Positions 1-29,036 are shown, counted from the stretch's first letter. The stretch: DNA of 32,000 nucleotides from Nitrososphaerota archaeon (GCA_002713205.1 PAVW01000006.1:39180-71179), one strand, 5' to 3'. The notes: generated by a model not told the origin, from the letters alone. Numbers and translations are program-made.

Positions 1-2332
1 TGTCAAAAGATATCTTCTTTTTACCAATAGCAAATAATTGAAGATATTGTATTGCATATTTTGATTTTACAGGTAATTGCGTTGGAAGAACTTTTCCATC
101 TATTTTAATCAATGAAGAAATCAATGGCTCAATATTGATATAATTTAAGATAAATTCATTCATTATCAGATATTTTTTAAGTGTGTTAGTTTCATTTTCA
201 ATAATTTTTATTCCATATTCAATATTAGAGAGTCTATCAGAAACATCATTAAGTACCTGATCATCTAATTTTCCTAAAGATGCTTTAATATCTGAGATTA
301 ACTGTGTATCCTTACCCCAATGAAAATCAGCCGGAATTTTAGAATCATTTCGTTTTTCAAATTCATGTAATAATTGTAATAGTTCTTCAATAACTGTTCG
401 AGTTCCTGATTCAAGGAAAGCTAGCGAATCCATAACATCAGGTAAATAAAGAATCCCGCGAAAAGTTTCAAGATTTTCAAAATCCTTAGAAATTCTTTGA
501 GTAATAAGACCAGTTTCAGTTGTTTTCGGGTCTTTACCTAATGATTCATTTAATGGTAAAACATTAGATTCGTACATCTTAACTGATCGTTTAATCAACT
601 TTTTTAAATTGACAATAGTTTTTTGCATTATTTTCATGTATCTTTGATTTAATGAATTAATTGTTACTAACAATGAATCCAGAGCTTGTTCTCCCTGACC
701 TTGTTGAATGAAATTTTCGCTAATTGAAATAGATGTTGCTTCAAGTGTAGGATCGAAATTTCTTTGTACTACTTTAACAAGTTTATCAGAAATATTAATA
801 GTATTTTGTGATAATTCTAGAAGGAAATTATTTAAATCGTCCTGATGACTAAGAATTATTGTAAAGGCAATTTCTGCATCAGGATCTAAATGTGTTAACT
901 CAATATCAGGTAAATTAACTATTCCCAACTTATTTAAACTATTGAGCAGAGTCTTACTTTTATCTAATTGTCTATTATGATATTCAATTAATTTCTTATG
1001 CAAATTAATTTCATTTTCAGATTGAATAGCTGAAAGTTCATATATTATTTTAACTTTAGAATTTAAAATTTTATAAGATAAAGTATCAACACCATCAAGT
1101 GTAATAAGCAATTCCTCTTTGAATTTGTTAGCTGCAGTAAGTTCAAAATTGATATCAATTCCAGGACAAGCATCTTGAATTTTTTTTATTTTTTCAAAGA
1201 AAGCATCTACTAATAAAGAATGATCTTTACAAACTTTTTTAATTGTTTCATTCAATTGTGCAGATATATATCGTTTGGATAAACTTATTGAACTAACGGA
1301 AAGAATTACGCCAAACCCTCCAGCAGATAAAATAGTTTTTAATGAATTTGAAAAATTAAAACTGGTATAATAATCAAAGGGAATTTGCATGGTCTGTAAT
1401 GGAATAATAAAGAAAATACAGCCTAAAATAATAGTAAATATGAACGAGAAATCCGGAATTTGATTAAGATCAACACCACGTAACTTTAACCAAGGCCATA
1501 TTCTATCCATAATACCAACAACAGAAAATGTGACAAGTAGTAAAAGTGGAATAAATAAAATAACCAACCGATCAATTAATAAAAATAAATAAGGATGAAA
1601 TACGTCATTTTGTACAGTTAAAATTCCTGAAAATAATTCACGAATGACGGGTAAATCAAATGAAGATAACCTAGGATTCTCATTAAAAATCAATTGATTG
1701 AAAAGAGGTAGTGATTCTGAACTCATAATGTGAAAAATTTCTTGTGGATTTAAATTTTCATTAATATTTGCATTATATGCAAAAGAAAGAGCGCCAAAAG
1801 GAATAAGTATCATAAGAAACATAAAACACATTCCTAAATTGCGTAAGAATTCATGGTCTTTTCGAATTAAAACAATCGACAACATTAATGGAATAGAAAT
1901 GAAATAATAAGGAGTTAAAAATAATGCTCCTGATATTAGACCAATAATAGGTGATAACAAATTATTTTTATTAGTAAGAGATCTAACTGTGAATAATCCT
2001 ACAAAAAACAAATTAATTAATAACCACCAGAAAGGGACACTGGTTTGATATAGATAAGCTGGAATGAAAGTAAAAATCGATAGTGAAAATCCTATAAGAG
2101 GAGATCTAAAACCAATAACTGACGTTATAATAGCTATAAGAAATACTATTGGAACCGGATATAAGGGAATTACATACAACAATGTTGCAGTAAGAATAAA
2201 CAAGAGAATAGAAAGAAATACGTTCTGTAGGTTTTTACGGTATTGAATTTCTCGTTCTATTGCATTATCAATAGAAGGCGAGGGCCTTATACCAACTTTG
2301 TCAATAACTGAACTGTTAATGAGAGATGGCAA
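1..2332 (-). CDS. Polytopic membrane protein (about 10 predicted TM helices) with a long alpha-helical, coiled-coil-like cytoplasmic C-terminal region. Partial: the 3' end runs off the window. Not in the supplied ORF track.
   Basis: Hand translation of the minus strand. The frame with codons on + positions 2..4, 5..7 and so on is open from the window edge up to an in-frame TAG at 2437..2435. The first in-frame ATG is at 1885..1883. Clear hydrophobic helices lie upstream of it (NVFLSILLFILTATLLYVIPLY, PVPIVFLIAIITSVIGF, VPFWWLLINLFFVGLFTV). A non-ATG start is therefore implied: TTG 2332..2330, TTG 2383..2381 or GTG 2428..2426. After about aa 400 the product turns hydrophilic and heptad-like (NEINLHKKLIEYHNRQLDKSKTLLNSLNKLG, QRYMKIMQKTIVNLKKLIKRSVKMYE). 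Confidence 0.7.
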   Translation of the reverse strand, partial: MPSLINSSVIDKVGIRPSPSIDNAIEREIQYRKNLQNVFLSILLFILTATLLYVIPLYPVPIVFLIAIITSVIGFRSPLIGFSLSIFTFIPAYLYQTSVPFWWLLINLFFVGLFTVRSLTNKNNLLSPIIGLISGALFLTPYYFISIPLMLSIVLIRKDHEFLRNLGMCFMFLMILIPFGALSFAYNANINENLNPQEIFHIMSSESLPLFNQLIFNENPRLSSFDLPVIRELFSGILTVQNDVFHPYLFLLIDRLVILFIPLLLLVTFSVVGIMDRIWPWLKLRGVDLNQIPDFSFIFTIILGCIFFIIPLQTMQIPFDYYTSFNFSNSLKTILSAGGFGVILSVSSISLSKRYISAQLNETIKKVCKDHSLLVDAFFEKIKKIQDACPGIDINFELTAANKFKEELLITLDGVDTLSYKILNSKVKIIYELSAIQSENEINLHKKLIEYHNRQLDKSKTLLNSLNKLGIVNLPDIELTHLDPDAEIAFTIILSHQDDLNNFLLELSQNTINISDKLVKVVQRNFDPTLEATSISISENFIQQGQGEQALDSLLVTINSLNQRYMKIMQKTIVNLKKLIKRSVKMYESNVLPLNESLGKDPKTTETGLITQRISKDFENLETFRGILYLPDVMDSLAFLESGTRTVIEELLQLLHEFEKRNDSKIPADFHWGKDTQLISDIKASLGKLDDQVLNDVSDRLSNIEYGIKIIENETNTLKKYLIMNEFILNYINIEPLISSLIKIDGKVLPTQLPVKSKYAIQYLQLFAIGKKKISFD

Positions 2333-2363: not shown

Positions 2364-5069
2364 CTAAGAATCTGTATCTTCAATCTTTTCTGTAGTAGTA
2401 AGTTGATGATCAGGTGATATGTGAACACCTTGTTCTAATAGAAATGAATGAGAAAGGAGTGTTTCACCTTTTGTTGTTTGGTTGTAAAGTATTCCCATTT
2501 CCTTAAAATTGTCTAAATCCGAAGGAGATGCTTTTGCAGCAATAATGAGAAATCTCATTGTCCAAGGATCATCAGAATCAACTTCTCTAATATAGATGCT
2601 TTTAGATGCATCTTTACTTACATAGCCCGCAAGCATGGTTTTTGCTTCAGAATCTAAATCAGAATCCCAAATACCACGCGGACTAACTACAGTAAACCAC
2701 AGGTAATCAGTGCGATATTTTGAAGTCAACCCGAGAGTAGCAGGAATTCGAAAGATTCCCAAAGCACTTGCTAAATATTCTTTCAAATGTTTGCGATCAA
2801 TAATCTCATTGAGCATATTTTCCTGAGTTAAAGAAGCTTCATCTTCAAGTAAAATACGTTGCATAATTTTTAGTTGTTCACCTTCAGTTAGTTCTGCGAC
2901 ACGATCATAATAACCTCGATCTCTCATAGTTTCATTCATTTTTTCATAGTAAGAATTTTCAAAAGTAGTAGCTTCAGTTAACATTTTTCTATAATTAGAA
3001 GCTACTTCAAATTTTCTTTCAATATTAGTATAAGCAGAGAGTTTATTTTCAAGGATCTGTCTTTCACCACTTACAGCATTAATTTGTTGATCAATAAGAT
3101 GCAATTCATGTTCTAAATCAGAAGATTTACTTTGCATAATTTTTTTGCGCGGTCCTAGAAACCCAAATCGAATCTTTTTTGCCTGTCCACCAACACGATC
3201 TTTTTCCTGGGTTCTACTTTTCTGTTTTATTAATAATGATTCTTCATGTGTACGAAGAGTATCTAATCTTTCAGATATAATACGTTTCATTACTTGACAA
3301 TCACTTAATCGCGCATCAAGAGTTTTAACTTCTAATGAAATAGGGGAAAGAAGAGAAGATAATAAAGCAAAATTAATAACAAGTTCTGGATTAGATATTC
3401 TGGAAACAGATTCTTTCATACGATCATGTAATTCACTCTGATCGAGTTTATCAATAGTTTTAGATAATTTATCGGACAAATTATGAATTTGTAAGTAAAG
3501 TTTCAGACCGTCAAGATAATAATTTATTAATCCAATTAAATTAATTGTATCATTAATAATTTGTAATTGTCGAGGAGTTAAACTTTGAGCACTAGGGAGA
3601 GTTGATTGAAGATCTTCAGTGAGTGTTTTTACTTTTTCTTGTAATTTTTGATAATTTTGAGAGAGATTAAGGCTCAATGAGACCATTTCTTCAGAAAGAG
3701 ATCGTATTCTAGATTCAACTGTGCCGTCTACAGCATTTAATCCTATGGACAAAACAGATTTCGATAAATCCGTGATTAGACTTCTAACTGAATCTTCGAC
3801 CCCTCGAATATGCATAACAAGATCAGCGTCCATAGATGTCCCCTCACCAAGAAAACTCTGTACGGTCGATTCAAACCTTGATTCGTCATAAGTGTTTTTT
3901 TCAATAAGAAGTCGTCGATATATAGATTTTAATTCAAGAAAATCTGAGTCGAAGATTGTTTTCAAACCAAAAGTTTCTTTTGTTCCATTATAAATATCTA
4001 ATTTTTCCCGTCGTAATTCTCGAAGTCTATCGAGTTTATCTAGATAGATTTTTGTGAGATCAATAAATTCAGCAACAGGATAAGAAACTTTTAGAGTTGA
4101 CATAACATTGACCCATTTCCCATCTAAATCAACATTAGAACCAATATTACTAAATAAATCGGCTAAATCAAAGTTTAATGATTTCATTAGAATATCAACA
4201 ATAGCTTCATCAACTAATTTTCTAGCATCTAGTACACTACCAGCTCTGCTATAAGCAGGACCTAAGGACATCATAAGAAATGCAGTAAATGGATTTTGAT
4301 ATGTATCCCCATATTTACTAGTAATTTTATGATTTAATGATCTATCAATTGCAAATTCATGCTCTAACAATGCAGCATAGCTAGCAGCGCCTTTTGCAGG
4401 AGGATCATCACCACTACAAGGCAATATAGTTAAACCAATTATAGGAATTCCACTACCTATTTTTTTACGTAGATGTCGTGTAAAATCTAGTGCAGTGCCA
4501 CTTCCAGAACCACCGCCAAGTCCATAAATAATAAATATAATTGGTTGTACTGTAGAAGTAAAAACATGTTCCTTAAATTTATCCATATAACCATCAACAA
4601 GTTTTAGATGGTGATAATTTAAACCGTATATTGCTTTAGAAAGTGCACGTTTTCTTCCCACACCACCAGCTAAAGGAGGTATTTCCATTGAAGAGGAAAG
4701 CCAAGGAATATAGTTATCTGGTACTTTTACACCTTCTCTTTGTAAAAATTCAGGATAATTTTGGATAAAATCAAACATAGATTCAGGAGTTGGGAATTTC
4801 ATTGTCTTGCTAACCAATTTAATTTTATCAGCAGGAATATTATTAATCTTCAAATCGTCACCAAGTCTCTTATATGCCATATCAAGGCTACGAATGTCGT
4901 GATCAGCAACGTCCAATGATAAGAGAGATACCTTAACCCCTTCAATTTTTAGGAGGTCGATAAGATCAGATTTATTTTTAATAAATGCCTCAATTACATT
5001 AGCACCAGTTCCTCCTAATCCAATTATCTGTATAGAATTCGTATAACTGCGAGCTTTGTTTTCTGACAA
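2364..5069 (-). CDS. Giant FtsZ/tubulin-superfamily GTPase (901 aa) with a coiled-coil region of about 430 aa and a C-terminal beta-rich segment
   Basis: ORF track plus motifs in canonical order. T1 is IIGLGGTGAN (aa 15-24). The T3/H3-like motif is LAGGVGRKRA (aa 133-142, nt 4644..4673), compare FtsZ GAGxNPxxGRxAA. The T4 tubulin signature is GLGGGSGSGT (aa 183-192, nt 4494..4523). T7 is NFDLAD, matching NxDxxD (aa 299-304, nt 4158..4175), compare FtsZ NxDFADV. aa ~335-770 are heptad-rich (LDRLRELRREKLD, SLSEEMVSLSLNLSQNYQKLQEKVKTLTEDLQ, QILENKLSAYTNIERKFE). Confidence 0.8.
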   Translation of the reverse strand: MSENKARSYTNSIQIIGLGGTGANVIEAFIKNKSDLIDLLKIEGVKVSLLSLDVADHDIRSLDMAYKRLGDDLKINNIPADKIKLVSKTMKFPTPESMFDFIQNYPEFLQREGVKVPDNYIPWLSSSMEIPPLAGGVGRKRALSKAIYGLNYHHLKLVDGYMDKFKEHVFTSTVQPIIFIIYGLGGGSGSGTALDFTRHLRKKIGSGIPIIGLTILPCSGDDPPAKGAASYAALLEHEFAIDRSLNHKITSKYGDTYQNPFTAFLMMSLGPAYSRAGSVLDARKLVDEAIVDILMKSLNFDLADLFSNIGSNVDLDGKWVNVMSTLKVSYPVAEFIDLTKIYLDKLDRLRELRREKLDIYNGTKETFGLKTIFDSDFLELKSIYRRLLIEKNTYDESRFESTVQSFLGEGTSMDADLVMHIRGVEDSVRSLITDLSKSVLSIGLNAVDGTVESRIRSLSEEMVSLSLNLSQNYQKLQEKVKTLTEDLQSTLPSAQSLTPRQLQIINDTINLIGLINYYLDGLKLYLQIHNLSDKLSKTIDKLDQSELHDRMKESVSRISNPELVINFALLSSLLSPISLEVKTLDARLSDCQVMKRIISERLDTLRTHEESLLIKQKSRTQEKDRVGGQAKKIRFGFLGPRKKIMQSKSSDLEHELHLIDQQINAVSGERQILENKLSAYTNIERKFEVASNYRKMLTEATTFENSYYEKMNETMRDRGYYDRVAELTEGEQLKIMQRILLEDEASLTQENMLNEIIDRKHLKEYLASALGIFRIPATLGLTSKYRTDYLWFTVVSPRGIWDSDLDSEAKTMLAGYVSKDASKSIYIREVDSDDPWTMRFLIIAAKASPSDLDNFKEMGILYNQTTKGETLLSHSFLLEQGVHISPDHQLTTTEKIEDTDS

Positions 5070-5077
5070 CTATATCA

Positions 5078-6007
5078 CTACTCTAAATGTTCAAGTTCCT
5101 TTTTAATACTTTCAATTTCAGTTGCTAGTTCCTTATCAATTCGTTGTGCGCGAACTAATACAAGATCAAGTCGATTTGCTTTGTCATTCACATAGCTAAC
5201 TAAAAATGAATTTGAAGTACGAGCACGATAAAATAGAAATGCTAGAATTAATGAAATAAGTGCAAAAGAAATAGAAGCTGCCATATACAAAGTTGTAGTC
5301 ATAGGCGGTTCAGGGAAATCAGAATTAGGGATAGTAGAAAGAAGAACAATTGCATCATCATAAAAACCAAAAGAAGTTAATGTCTCTGCTTCATTAACAA
5401 TACTAAGTGCTAATTCAGAATACTTAGCATCCATACTGGTTTCAGATAATATTTTACGTTTATCAGATAACAAATTTTCATAAGTAATAATTGTCTGATC
5501 GGTAATTGTGTAAGTTTTATCATCAAGAATCTCCATAGACTCTAATGAAAGAATCAAAATAGAAAATTGTTGCAAAGAATGAACAGTTTTTTGTATATCT
5601 TGAAGTTGTTGTTCAGTTATATCACCAGGAATCATACCATTGAGAGTAAATTCTGCAATTCCTTCCTTAGCTTGAAACATAATTGATTGTGAACCAGGAG
5701 TCCACGTTGAAGTATCTACACCAGCATAATTATTTTCCAATGTCCAAAATTCATTTCCTGATTTTTCCATACTAGTAGAAAGTAAAATATTATCACTGAG
5801 TGTTGCACCAATTTCTATAGTAAACTTAACAGTATATGCACCACCAGCAACAAGAGACTTGTCTGTAATGTCATTTCCATTTGGATCCAATACAACAAAA
5901 CTAGATAGAACTGCGGGTGCTTGTTCAAAGGAAAGAGGAATTTGAAAACAACAAGTCAATAACAAGAAGAATAATAGTGCAGAAACAAAATTTAATTTTA
6001 AATTCAT
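5078..6007 (-). CDS. Bitopic (type I-like) membrane protein: N-terminal signal/anchor, extracellular beta-rich plus helical domain, C-terminal TM helix, short cytoplasmic coiled-coil tail
   Basis: ORF track. The N-terminus is hydrophobic (MNLKLNFVSALLFFLLLTCCF). A TM helix lies near the C-terminus (LYMAASISFALISLILAFLFY), followed by RARTS and then a charged helical tail (RLDLVLVRAQRIDKELATEIESIKKELEHLE). The stop is 8 nt upstream of the FtsZ-like start codon. Confidence 0.65.
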   Translation of the reverse strand: MNLKLNFVSALLFFLLLTCCFQIPLSFEQAPAVLSSFVVLDPNGNDITDKSLVAGGAYTVKFTIEIGATLSDNILLSTSMEKSGNEFWTLENNYAGVDTSTWTPGSQSIMFQAKEGIAEFTLNGMIPGDITEQQLQDIQKTVHSLQQFSILILSLESMEILDDKTYTITDQTIITYENLLSDKRKILSETSMDAKYSELALSIVNEAETLTSFGFYDDAIVLLSTIPNSDFPEPPMTTTLYMAASISFALISLILAFLFYRARTSNSFLVSYVNDKANRLDLVLVRAQRIDKELATEIESIKKELEHLE

Positions 6008-28807: not shown

Positions 28808-28868
28808 TATTTTGCAAACAACCACATATCCATTATATTTAATACGAGTTTTTGACATGAAATTTTAT

Positions 28869-28953
28869 GCGGGGGTCGCCCAGCCCGGTCAAAGGCGTAG
28901 GATTTAGGCTCCTATCTCTCAGGAGTTCGTGGGTTCAAATCCCACCTCCCGCA
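28869..28953 (+). tRNA. tRNA-Leu(UAG): tRNA-Leu, anticodon UAG (class II, long variable arm), no intron, CCA not encoded
   Basis: Folded by hand. The acceptor stem is GCGGGGG/CTCCCGC (one G-U pair) with discriminator A. The anticodon stem is TAGGA/TCCTA with loop TTTAGGC (anticodon at 28905..28907). The variable arm is about 14 nt. The T arm is GTGGG-TTCAAAT-CCCAC. A T-rich tract follows. Confidence 0.9.
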
Positions 28954-29036
28954 TTTATTTAATATTTTTTCAATGTGTAAAAATAACTTTGAATACAGAA
29001 CATTTATTCAAGAGAATCACGAGTAAATTCTAGACA

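Follow-up and report, generated by a model that had tools for sequence, protein, structure and literature searches.

The tubulin/FtsZ fold of a 901-amino acid (aa) archaeal protein is very probably split by a module of about 450 residues, which in the predicted models lies after strand S7 and before the H9 and S8 elements. The protein is encoded at positions 2364..5069 of the minus strand of a 32,000-nucleotide (nt) stretch of DNA from a Nitrososphaerota archaeon (GCA_002713205.1, PAVW01000006.1:39180-71179), which was analyzed at its full length and is referred to hereafter as “the window”. The open reading frame (ORF) specifies a stalked GTPase of the tubulin superfamily, of the Pfam Tubulin_2/FtsZl1 family, and the inserted module comprises a helical stalk (aa 332-714) together with a smaller piece (aa 722-779). 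An earlier note on this DNA had claimed such an insertion between the T7/S7 region and a C-terminal segment resembling FtsZ strands S8-S10; at the level of the fold, this claim is now supported by two lines of evidence, namely the gains in structural similarity obtained when the stalk was deleted from the model, and the existence of natural relatives in which the stalk is missing.

To our knowledge, tubulin, FtsZ, CetZ, TubZ and PhuZ build their filaments from a compact two-domain subunit, the elaborations of which are usually C-terminal tails. Across the superfamily, GTP is bound by T1-T6 of one subunit and the active site is completed by T7 of the following one, which couples hydrolysis to head-to-tail assembly. 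Ammonia-oxidizing archaea divide with Cdv/ESCRT proteins, and the present finding, which rests on predicted structure and comparative genomics, bears on their tubulin-like genes. As the best overall explanation, to which we assign a probability of roughly 65%, we propose a split-fold, stalked GTPase of the tubulin superfamily acting in a membrane-tethered, GTP-driven scaffold or remodeling machine.

A Tubulin Fold Probably Interrupted After S7

AlphaFold2 modeled the full-length protein with a mean predicted local distance difference test (pLDDT) score of 89.6 and a predicted template modeling (pTM) score of 0.78. The elements follow one another in this model as S1-S6, H7, T7, H8, S7, stalk, H9-like helix, S8, H10, S9, and S10. 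The two segments singled out in the earlier note do lie where it had placed them within the minus-strand ORF: GKWVNVMSTLKVS corresponds to aa 317-329 of the 901-aa protein, and the segment running from TDYLWF to AAKAS to aa 787-848 (nt 2526..2711). The S7-equivalent strand (aa 320-329, window 4083..4112, minus strand), assigned as such by DSSP, is the last element before the insertion, and the short relative P0151 aligns with the window protein through residue 329. It is followed by the helical stalk (aa 332-714, window 2928..4076, minus strand), which has 11 helices according to DSSP and pLDDT, and which is absent from natural relatives of 473-590 aa. The helical region of about 430 aa that had been read as continuous is indeed almost pure helix between 332 and 714, but it is interrupted by ten short breaks (at about 362-368, 391-395, 409-412, 441-450, 468, 494-498, 541-545, 573-576, 633-635, and 688-691).

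Beyond the stalk, the secondary structure of the model comprises a small helical sub-module (aa 722-779, window 2733..2906, minus strand), within which helix 759-774 is, judging from the order of the elements, the likely equivalent of the H9 preceding S8. The chain then forms the S8-H10-S9-S10 equivalent (aa 790-847, window 2529..2702, minus strand), modeled as strand 790-796, helix 803-816, and strands 825-831 and 837-847; this order, together with the compactness of the stalk-deleted head described below, agrees with the proposal that aa 787-850 complete an FtsZ-like subdomain. The last 54 positions form a C-terminal extension (aa 848-901, window 2367..2528, minus strand) carrying the conserved motif LSHSFLLEQGV, for which the model gives two helices (one of them 855-872) and a small hairpin. 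The boundaries of the insertion are conserved and free of indels. In an alignment of 51 sequences, the source of all the residue-conservation figures given here, two residues flanking the insertion (Y330 and W791) are invariant and two more (P331 and Y785) at least 90% conserved. Within the S8-H10-S9-S10 block itself, W791, P797, W801, and W836 are invariant.

Foldseek comparison of the full-length model with the PDB returned matches that all belong to the tubulin superfamily, with alignments ending after about 340 columns. Such a stop is expected, because an insertion of 400 residues would block a sequential local alignment. A chimera was therefore modeled in which aa 1-338 are joined to aa 712-901, aligned with 50 intact homologues whose stalks were ignored as insertions. 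The resulting AlphaFold2 model is one compact body (pLDDT 90.0, pTM 0.91), and the best Foldseek E-value moved from 1.2e-5 for the full-length protein to 4.2e-14. CetZ1 (4b46), outside the top 50 matches at full length, was matched by the stalk-deleted model with this latter E-value, a template modeling (TM) score per target of 0.66 and 496 columns, whereas CetZ2 (4b45_A) passed from E 1.2e-5, TM 0.51 and 343 columns to 7.4e-13, 0.72 and 498. The same trend was found for the FtsZ entries (TM per target from about 0.48 to about 0.58-0.66, columns from about 335 to about 480) and for TubZ (from about 0.38 to about 0.57, and from about 365 to about 525). The additional 150 or so columns and 0.15-0.2 TM units do not come from the N-terminal domain, since that domain was already aligned at full length; the gain therefore points to the C-terminal segment occupying the place of the C-terminal subdomain. 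The predicted model thus displays the two-domain fold of the superfamily, with a Rossmann-like domain, the core helix H7 and a C-terminal S7-S10 sheet.

The best structural matches of the stalk-deleted head are CetZ entries (4b45, 4b46, 3zid; TM per target 0.66-0.72), with which it shares the two-domain fold and the sequence pattern of T4. Nevertheless, identity in the structural alignment is only about 13-14%, and CetZ proteins are of about 350-395 aa and have no stalk insertion. With FtsZ, the protein has in common the predicted fold, the T1 and T4 motifs, a T7-like motif of similar pattern and the S7-H9-S8-H10-S9-S10 order of the subdomain, and differs in its 450-aa insertion and in showing no match to FtsZ_C.

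Natural Relatives Without a Stalk

The second line of evidence comes from relatives of 473-590 aa (P0144, P0148, P0149, P0151, P0160, and P0180), which are homologous to both halves of the head. The family profile (hmmsearch) matches such proteins in two pieces, corresponding to profile positions 4-292 and about 775-888, which are 55-95 residues apart; the independent E-value of the second piece was 1.7e-19 in P0144, 2e-12 in P0149, 1.8e-12 in P0167 and 4e-8 to 2e-7 in the others. By BLASTP, residues 32-362 of P0151 align to window protein residues 4-329, that is, through S7 (E 1e-33), and its residues 371-472 to residues 780-885 (E 2e-4), leaving 8 residues in place of the 450 residues 330-779. 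MAFFT likewise aligns the stalk-less relatives to residues 1-314 and 774-901, and the joint alignment reveals two motifs common to both groups, [FY][KR]TDY where S8 begins and, close to the end of the chain, HS[FW]LLExGV. Comparison of the sequences, which is independent of structure prediction, shows that the two halves of the head belong together, and that the stalk is an insertion or, conversely, its absence a deletion in the short forms.

At L087:4142-7686, L088:6001-9642, and L089:425-4066, the stalk-less relatives are encoded by two paralogues in tandem, each of about 510-560 aa, on either side of a conserved 99-aa gene. These proteins also carry a Cys-rich C-terminal motif, GECIWGCACWV.

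Evidence Against a Split Fold and a Scaffold Role

Several observations weigh against the reading presented above. At the sequence level, BLASTP of the two segments compared by eye in the earlier note (E. coli FtsZ and the window protein) gave no alignment at E ≤ 100; the secondary-structure register of that comparison was right, but its residue alignment finds no statistical support. The family profile detects only the T1 and T4 regions among PDB sequences, and neither FtsZ_C nor Tubulin_C is matched by any of 32 stalk-deleted members (Pfam, E ≤ 10). Covariation, computed as mutual information with average product correction and by mean-field direct coupling analysis (effective number of sequences about 70-84), was swamped by phylogenetic and gap artefacts and was not relied on; its sole hint, a few grouped pairs linking residues 311-314 to residues 751-758, was too noisy to be used. 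The structural case derives wholly from predicted models, with GTP binding, polymerization and membrane association inferred, and the short junction of the chimera forces its two halves close together. With respect to function, the stalk-less relatives have no NxDxxD motif and are found in metabolic-looking operons, beside CN_hydrolase, Peripla_BP_6, NicO, and CobW genes. Furthermore, vWA, OmpA, kinase, and GTPase genes were not found by Pfam among the neighbors in L001-L006 or in the window; these are the partners that supported membrane remodeling for the classical FtsZl1 proteins, although the association with vWA, a divergent P-loop GTPase, OmpA-like or kinase genes was described for most, not all, FtsZl1 operons (PMC2875224).

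The negative sequence comparisons would suit a protein in which the N-terminal domain functions alone, the coiled coil is a parallel dimerizing tail, and the C-terminal 115-150 aa have nothing to do with S8-S10; similarity of the C-terminal part to FtsZ/tubulin was not detected in 2010 either (PMC2875224). We consider such a linear arrangement very improbable. The stalk-deleted model is compact and matches CetZ and FtsZ precisely through the C-terminal segment, natural relatives join both halves directly, and a head deprived of aa 790-847 would keep a single strand (S7) of its C-terminal sheet. An independent C-terminal domain at the end of a linear tail, the outcome that would have spoken against the split fold, was not what the models returned.

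Since the stalk-less relatives have no NxDxxD motif and sit in metabolic-looking operons, the ancestral function may not be cytoskeletal. The stalked protein could accordingly be pictured as a nucleotide-dependent accessory or assembly factor of the same type, which its stalk merely recruits to a membrane complex; the clear homology of the short proteins to both head halves, and their contexts in L087, L088, and L089 (CN_hydrolase, NicO, CobW, and solute-binding genes), speak for it. Nonetheless, the conserved neighborhood of the stalked family is different and devoid of those enzyme genes, and the stalked proteins keep a T7-like motif that the short ones have not, which makes this alternative improbable in our judgment in comparison with a split-fold GTPase acting on membranes.

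Relation to FtsZl1 Proteins

Makarova and Koonin (2010; PMC2875224) described FtsZl1 proteins as an FtsZ-like domain, a coiled coil and a C-terminal domain, and proposed for them a role in membrane remodeling. No similarity of the C-terminal domain to those of FtsZ or tubulin was detected, T6-H7 could not be identified, and the authors doubted the formation of canonical filaments (PMC2875224). More recently, a 2023 paper set the Tubulin_2 proteins aside as divergent. The window protein resembles this group in its N-terminal FtsZ-like domain with T1 and T4, its long helical region and its C-terminal domain, and membrane proteins are encoded nearby in both cases. It differs in its clear T7-like NxDxxD motif, as opposed to the unidentifiable T6-H7, and in a C-terminal part that was described in FtsZl1 as mostly alpha-helical and unrelated to FtsZ, whereas here it is alpha/beta and completes the fold in the model. 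The neighborhood is also distinct: two genes for membrane proteins and another for a tubulin-like protein stand there in place of the vWA, OmpA, kinase, or P-loop GTPase genes.

The suggestion of the earlier note that the architecture was undescribed consequently holds in part: the layout of head, coiled coil and C-terminal domain was already in that 2010 publication, while an insertion within the fold was not found in the searchable literature, which leaves out most subscription journals. Three aspects appear to be new, namely the recognition of the “C-terminal domain” as forming the other half of the tubulin fold, the placement of the stalk as an insertion at the M-loop position, and the distinct cluster of four to five genes of this clade, including a second tubulin-like protein. 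If the split fold is correct, the reading of FtsZl1 held since 2010 would change, as the “unrelated” C-terminal domain would turn out to supply the half of the tubulin fold that was missing, and the possibility of canonical head-to-tail assembly, doubted by the 2010 authors, would be restored.

The GTPase Head and Its Family

The N-terminal nucleotide-binding domain (aa 10-297, S1-S6 and H1-H7; window 4179..5042, minus strand) is modeled as six strands alternating with helices, and is matched by Foldseek to CetZ, FtsZ, TubZ, and tubulin. Both glycine-rich loops of the tubulin/FtsZ superfamily are present in it, T1 as GLGGTG (aa 16-21) and T4 as GGGSGSG (aa 185-191). The complete T1 loop reads GLGGTGAN (aa 16-23, window 5001..5024, minus strand), has G17, G19, and G22 invariant, and aligns with the T1 of FtsZ and CetZ in profile comparison. 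The T4 tubulin signature, GLGGGSGSG (aa 183-191, window 4497..4523, minus strand), aligns with the GGGTGSG of CetZ and FtsZ, and its G183, G185, G186, G187, G189, S190, and G191 are each at least 90% conserved. Between H7 (279-297) and H8 (302-309) of the model lies the T7-like motif NFDLAD (aa 299-304, window 4158..4175, minus strand), of the pattern NxDxxD, with an invariant F300 and D301 and a D304 conserved to at least 90%; the corresponding motif of FtsZ is NVDFAD (PMC3684127).

The match to Pfam Tubulin_2 (PF13809) scored 40.1 bits over a cut-off of 27 (E 3.4e-10, aa 15-219), covering only positions 2-208 of the 356 in the model, and all 32 family members scanned matched it as well. The classical Tubulin/FtsZ GTPase domain (Pfam Tubulin) gave a weaker match (E 1.9e-6), below the cut-off of that model. 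On the other hand, the NCBIfam ftsZ equivalog TIGR00065 scored 20.1 bits, far from its cut-off of 295.2, and with CetZ sequences only the T4 region aligned (E 0.036 with a single sequence, 2e-4 with a profile). The 901-aa protein belongs by its Pfam score to the Tubulin_2/FtsZl1 family and is neither an FtsZ nor a CetZ. No P-loop family was found in the head by Pfam or NCBIfam scans.

Database searching yielded 340 full-length homologues. Among the 120 listed, almost all are of about 880-950 aa, and their alignments cover 97-100% of the query, with identities as low as 35%; the complete 900-aa architecture persists down to 34% identity across the 340 proteins and a set of 216 genomic loci. The closest relatives (78-92% identity) are found in metagenome-assembled genomes of marine Nitrosopumilales/Thaumarchaeota, and the 901-aa protein is a real, conserved protein of marine ammonia-oxidizing archaea (Nitrosopumilales). 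A profile search of 1.84 billion cluster representatives gave 273 matches at E ≤ 0.001; the full-length family is small and compact, since only about 14 of the matches listed are full-length clusters. Two members from Bathyarchaeia (P0091 and P0095, about 950 aa) carry an extra C-terminal extension with CxxC...CxxC motifs, which is absent from the window protein.

The Stalk and Its Probable Site of Insertion

In tubulin, the loop between S7 and H9 is the M-loop, which makes lateral contacts between protofilaments in microtubules (PMC8456036). The insertion of the window protein takes the same position, between S7 and the H9-like helix, according to the element order of the predicted model, with a helical module of about 450 aa here instead of the short lateral-contact loop there. 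As both ends of the stalk sit in the head, the stalk would have to fold back on itself; its antiparallel geometry follows from this topology only, and may correspond either to a simple hairpin or to helical bundles.

Several positions of the stalk are conserved. The loop at aa 441-456 (window 3702..3749, minus strand) has the consensus AIGLxAxEGTxEARIR, with G449 and E452 at least 90% conserved, and the loop at aa 493-503 is conserved as PSxQxLTxRQ. R694 (window 2988..2990, minus strand), near the base of the stalk, is invariant. The strong conservation of these non-helical loops and the invariance of R694 suggest that the stalk holds binding sites and is not a mere spacer. The most hydrophobic stretch of the whole protein, ELVINFALLSSLLSPISLEV (aa 563-581, window 3327..3383, minus strand), coincides with a predicted helix-turn-helix of the stalk, and could be either a buried core or a membrane-facing tip.

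The Gene Cluster and a Proposed Mechanism

The gene for the GTPase is the second in a conserved cluster. Upstream of it lies the gene for a 309-aa membrane protein (window 5078..6007, minus strand), whose stop codon is 8 nt before the GTPase start, and in which hydropathy analysis shows two hydrophobic segments (aa 7-25 and 240-258), the last 50 or so residues forming a charged tail. The downstream partner, an open frame cut by the window edge (window 1..2332, minus strand), encodes a polytopic membrane protein (about 790 aa) for which the hydropathy profile gives some 9-10 hydrophobic segments and a long C-terminal part that is not hydrophobic; it is 60% identical over 778 aa to a 790-aa gene product of L006. 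The left end of the window, where G+C content is low (about 27% over positions 1..2000), belongs to this open frame and is not intergenic; ORF lists overlook the frame because it continues past the window edge. Beyond the window, related contigs also carry a 328-aa protein and a second protein of the tubulin superfamily (441-458 aa). Among 87 loci compared, 69 have the 309-aa gene adjacent, 71 contain the ~790-aa gene, and 76 contain the second tubulin-like gene.

Because the operon includes two dedicated membrane proteins, a membrane-tethered, GTP-dependent device is the simplest model. In such a device, the heads would bind GTP and associate head-to-tail, each T7 completing the active site of its neighbor as in FtsZ and tubulin, possibly with co-assembly of the second tubulin-like protein. 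From each head the chain would exit, run out and come back to finish the fold with S8-H10-S9-S10. As the stalk leaves from the lateral face, the longitudinal interfaces would stay free; the retention of T1, T4, and NxDxxD, together with an insertion at a lateral loop, suggests that the heads could still assemble longitudinally. The stalks would then project sideways from the filament or oligomer toward the membrane, where they might contact both partners, the 309-aa protein through its cytoplasmic tail and the ~790-aa protein through its large cytoplasmic part, and the outcome would be a scaffold or remodeling machine, tethered to the membrane and driven by GTP. Among the parts of this proposal, GTP-dependent self-association through T7 seems to us slightly favored, and the tethering role of the stalk is offered more tentatively, as a possibility that we hold with some doubt.

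Head and returning stalk also bring to mind dynamin, the bacterial dynamin-like proteins and SMC/Rad50, in which a stalk similarly leaves the head and comes back to it, although this is an analogy only, since those heads are P-loop GTPases or ABC ATPases unrelated to the tubulin fold. In the main rival explanation, the protein would be a GTP-dependent dimerizing switch of this type: two heads would pair around nucleotide and the stalks would relay a conformational change to the membrane partners, with no filament being formed. The layout itself is in keeping with this alternative, the hydrophobic aa 563-581 could provide the membrane-facing tip, and the second tubulin-like protein, partly degenerate, could be the other half of a fixed heterodimer. 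It remains unlikely in our view, because the conserved NxDxxD is the hallmark of head-to-tail, trans-activated assembly and a lateral insertion at the M-loop leaves both longitudinal faces free, facts with which short oligomers are nonetheless compatible.

Extending the scaffold proposal to its full consequences, a class of “stalked tubulins” that has so far gone unrecognized can be conceived, in which heads driven by GTP assemble head-to-tail, perhaps copolymerizing with the neighboring second tubulin-like protein, a row of long helical arms extending from the M-loop side grips two membrane proteins, and nucleotide turnover is coupled to the shaping or positioning of membranes, the cluster having been exchanged with Dehalococcoidia. 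This broader picture is speculative, and we regard it as rather unlikely in its entirety; if true, such a machine would be at work in archaea that rank among the most abundant in the ocean.

The Second Tubulin-Like Gene, Distribution and Other Observations

The second tubulin-like gene, off the left edge of the window, was located at L006:16155-17480 (plus strand) and L003:14079-15455 (plus strand). Its product bears an N-terminal Cys/His motif resembling a zinc ribbon, and its T4 signature, which is intact in Dehalococcoidia (GGGTGSG), reads as a degenerate GSMGETLVSG in Thaumarchaeota. This gene might be that of the non-polymerizing thaumarchaeal “FtsZ”, Nmar_1262 of N. maritimus; the AGKAGSA motif of Nmar_1262 was not found in any fetched locus, and a search for homologues gave close relatives only. 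If the two were the same, the cluster would provide that protein with a genomic setting and with a function open to experiment.

The cluster is present in Thaumarchaeota, Bathyarchaeia, Methanomethylicota, and Dehalococcoidia/Chloroflexota. In the latter (L016-L045), identity to the thaumarchaeal protein is 51-54% and the whole cluster keeps the same order, whereas the homologues of Bathyarchaeia (L048-L086) are only 34-38% identical and their cluster is rearranged. That bacterial proteins are closer and in the same order, and archaeal ones farther and rearranged, suggests that the cluster moved as a whole between the domains. In one of the closest relatives (L005/L006), the neighboring aconitase, flavin reductase, and SLOG genes also follow the order of the window.

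A role of the cluster in anti-phage defense was considered as well and rejected, as PADLOC gave no match at E ≤ 0.01 for any of the five cluster proteins. The window as a whole has a G+C content of about 30%, and a tRNA-Leu gene at 28868..28954 (plus strand) is the sole RNA family found in it.

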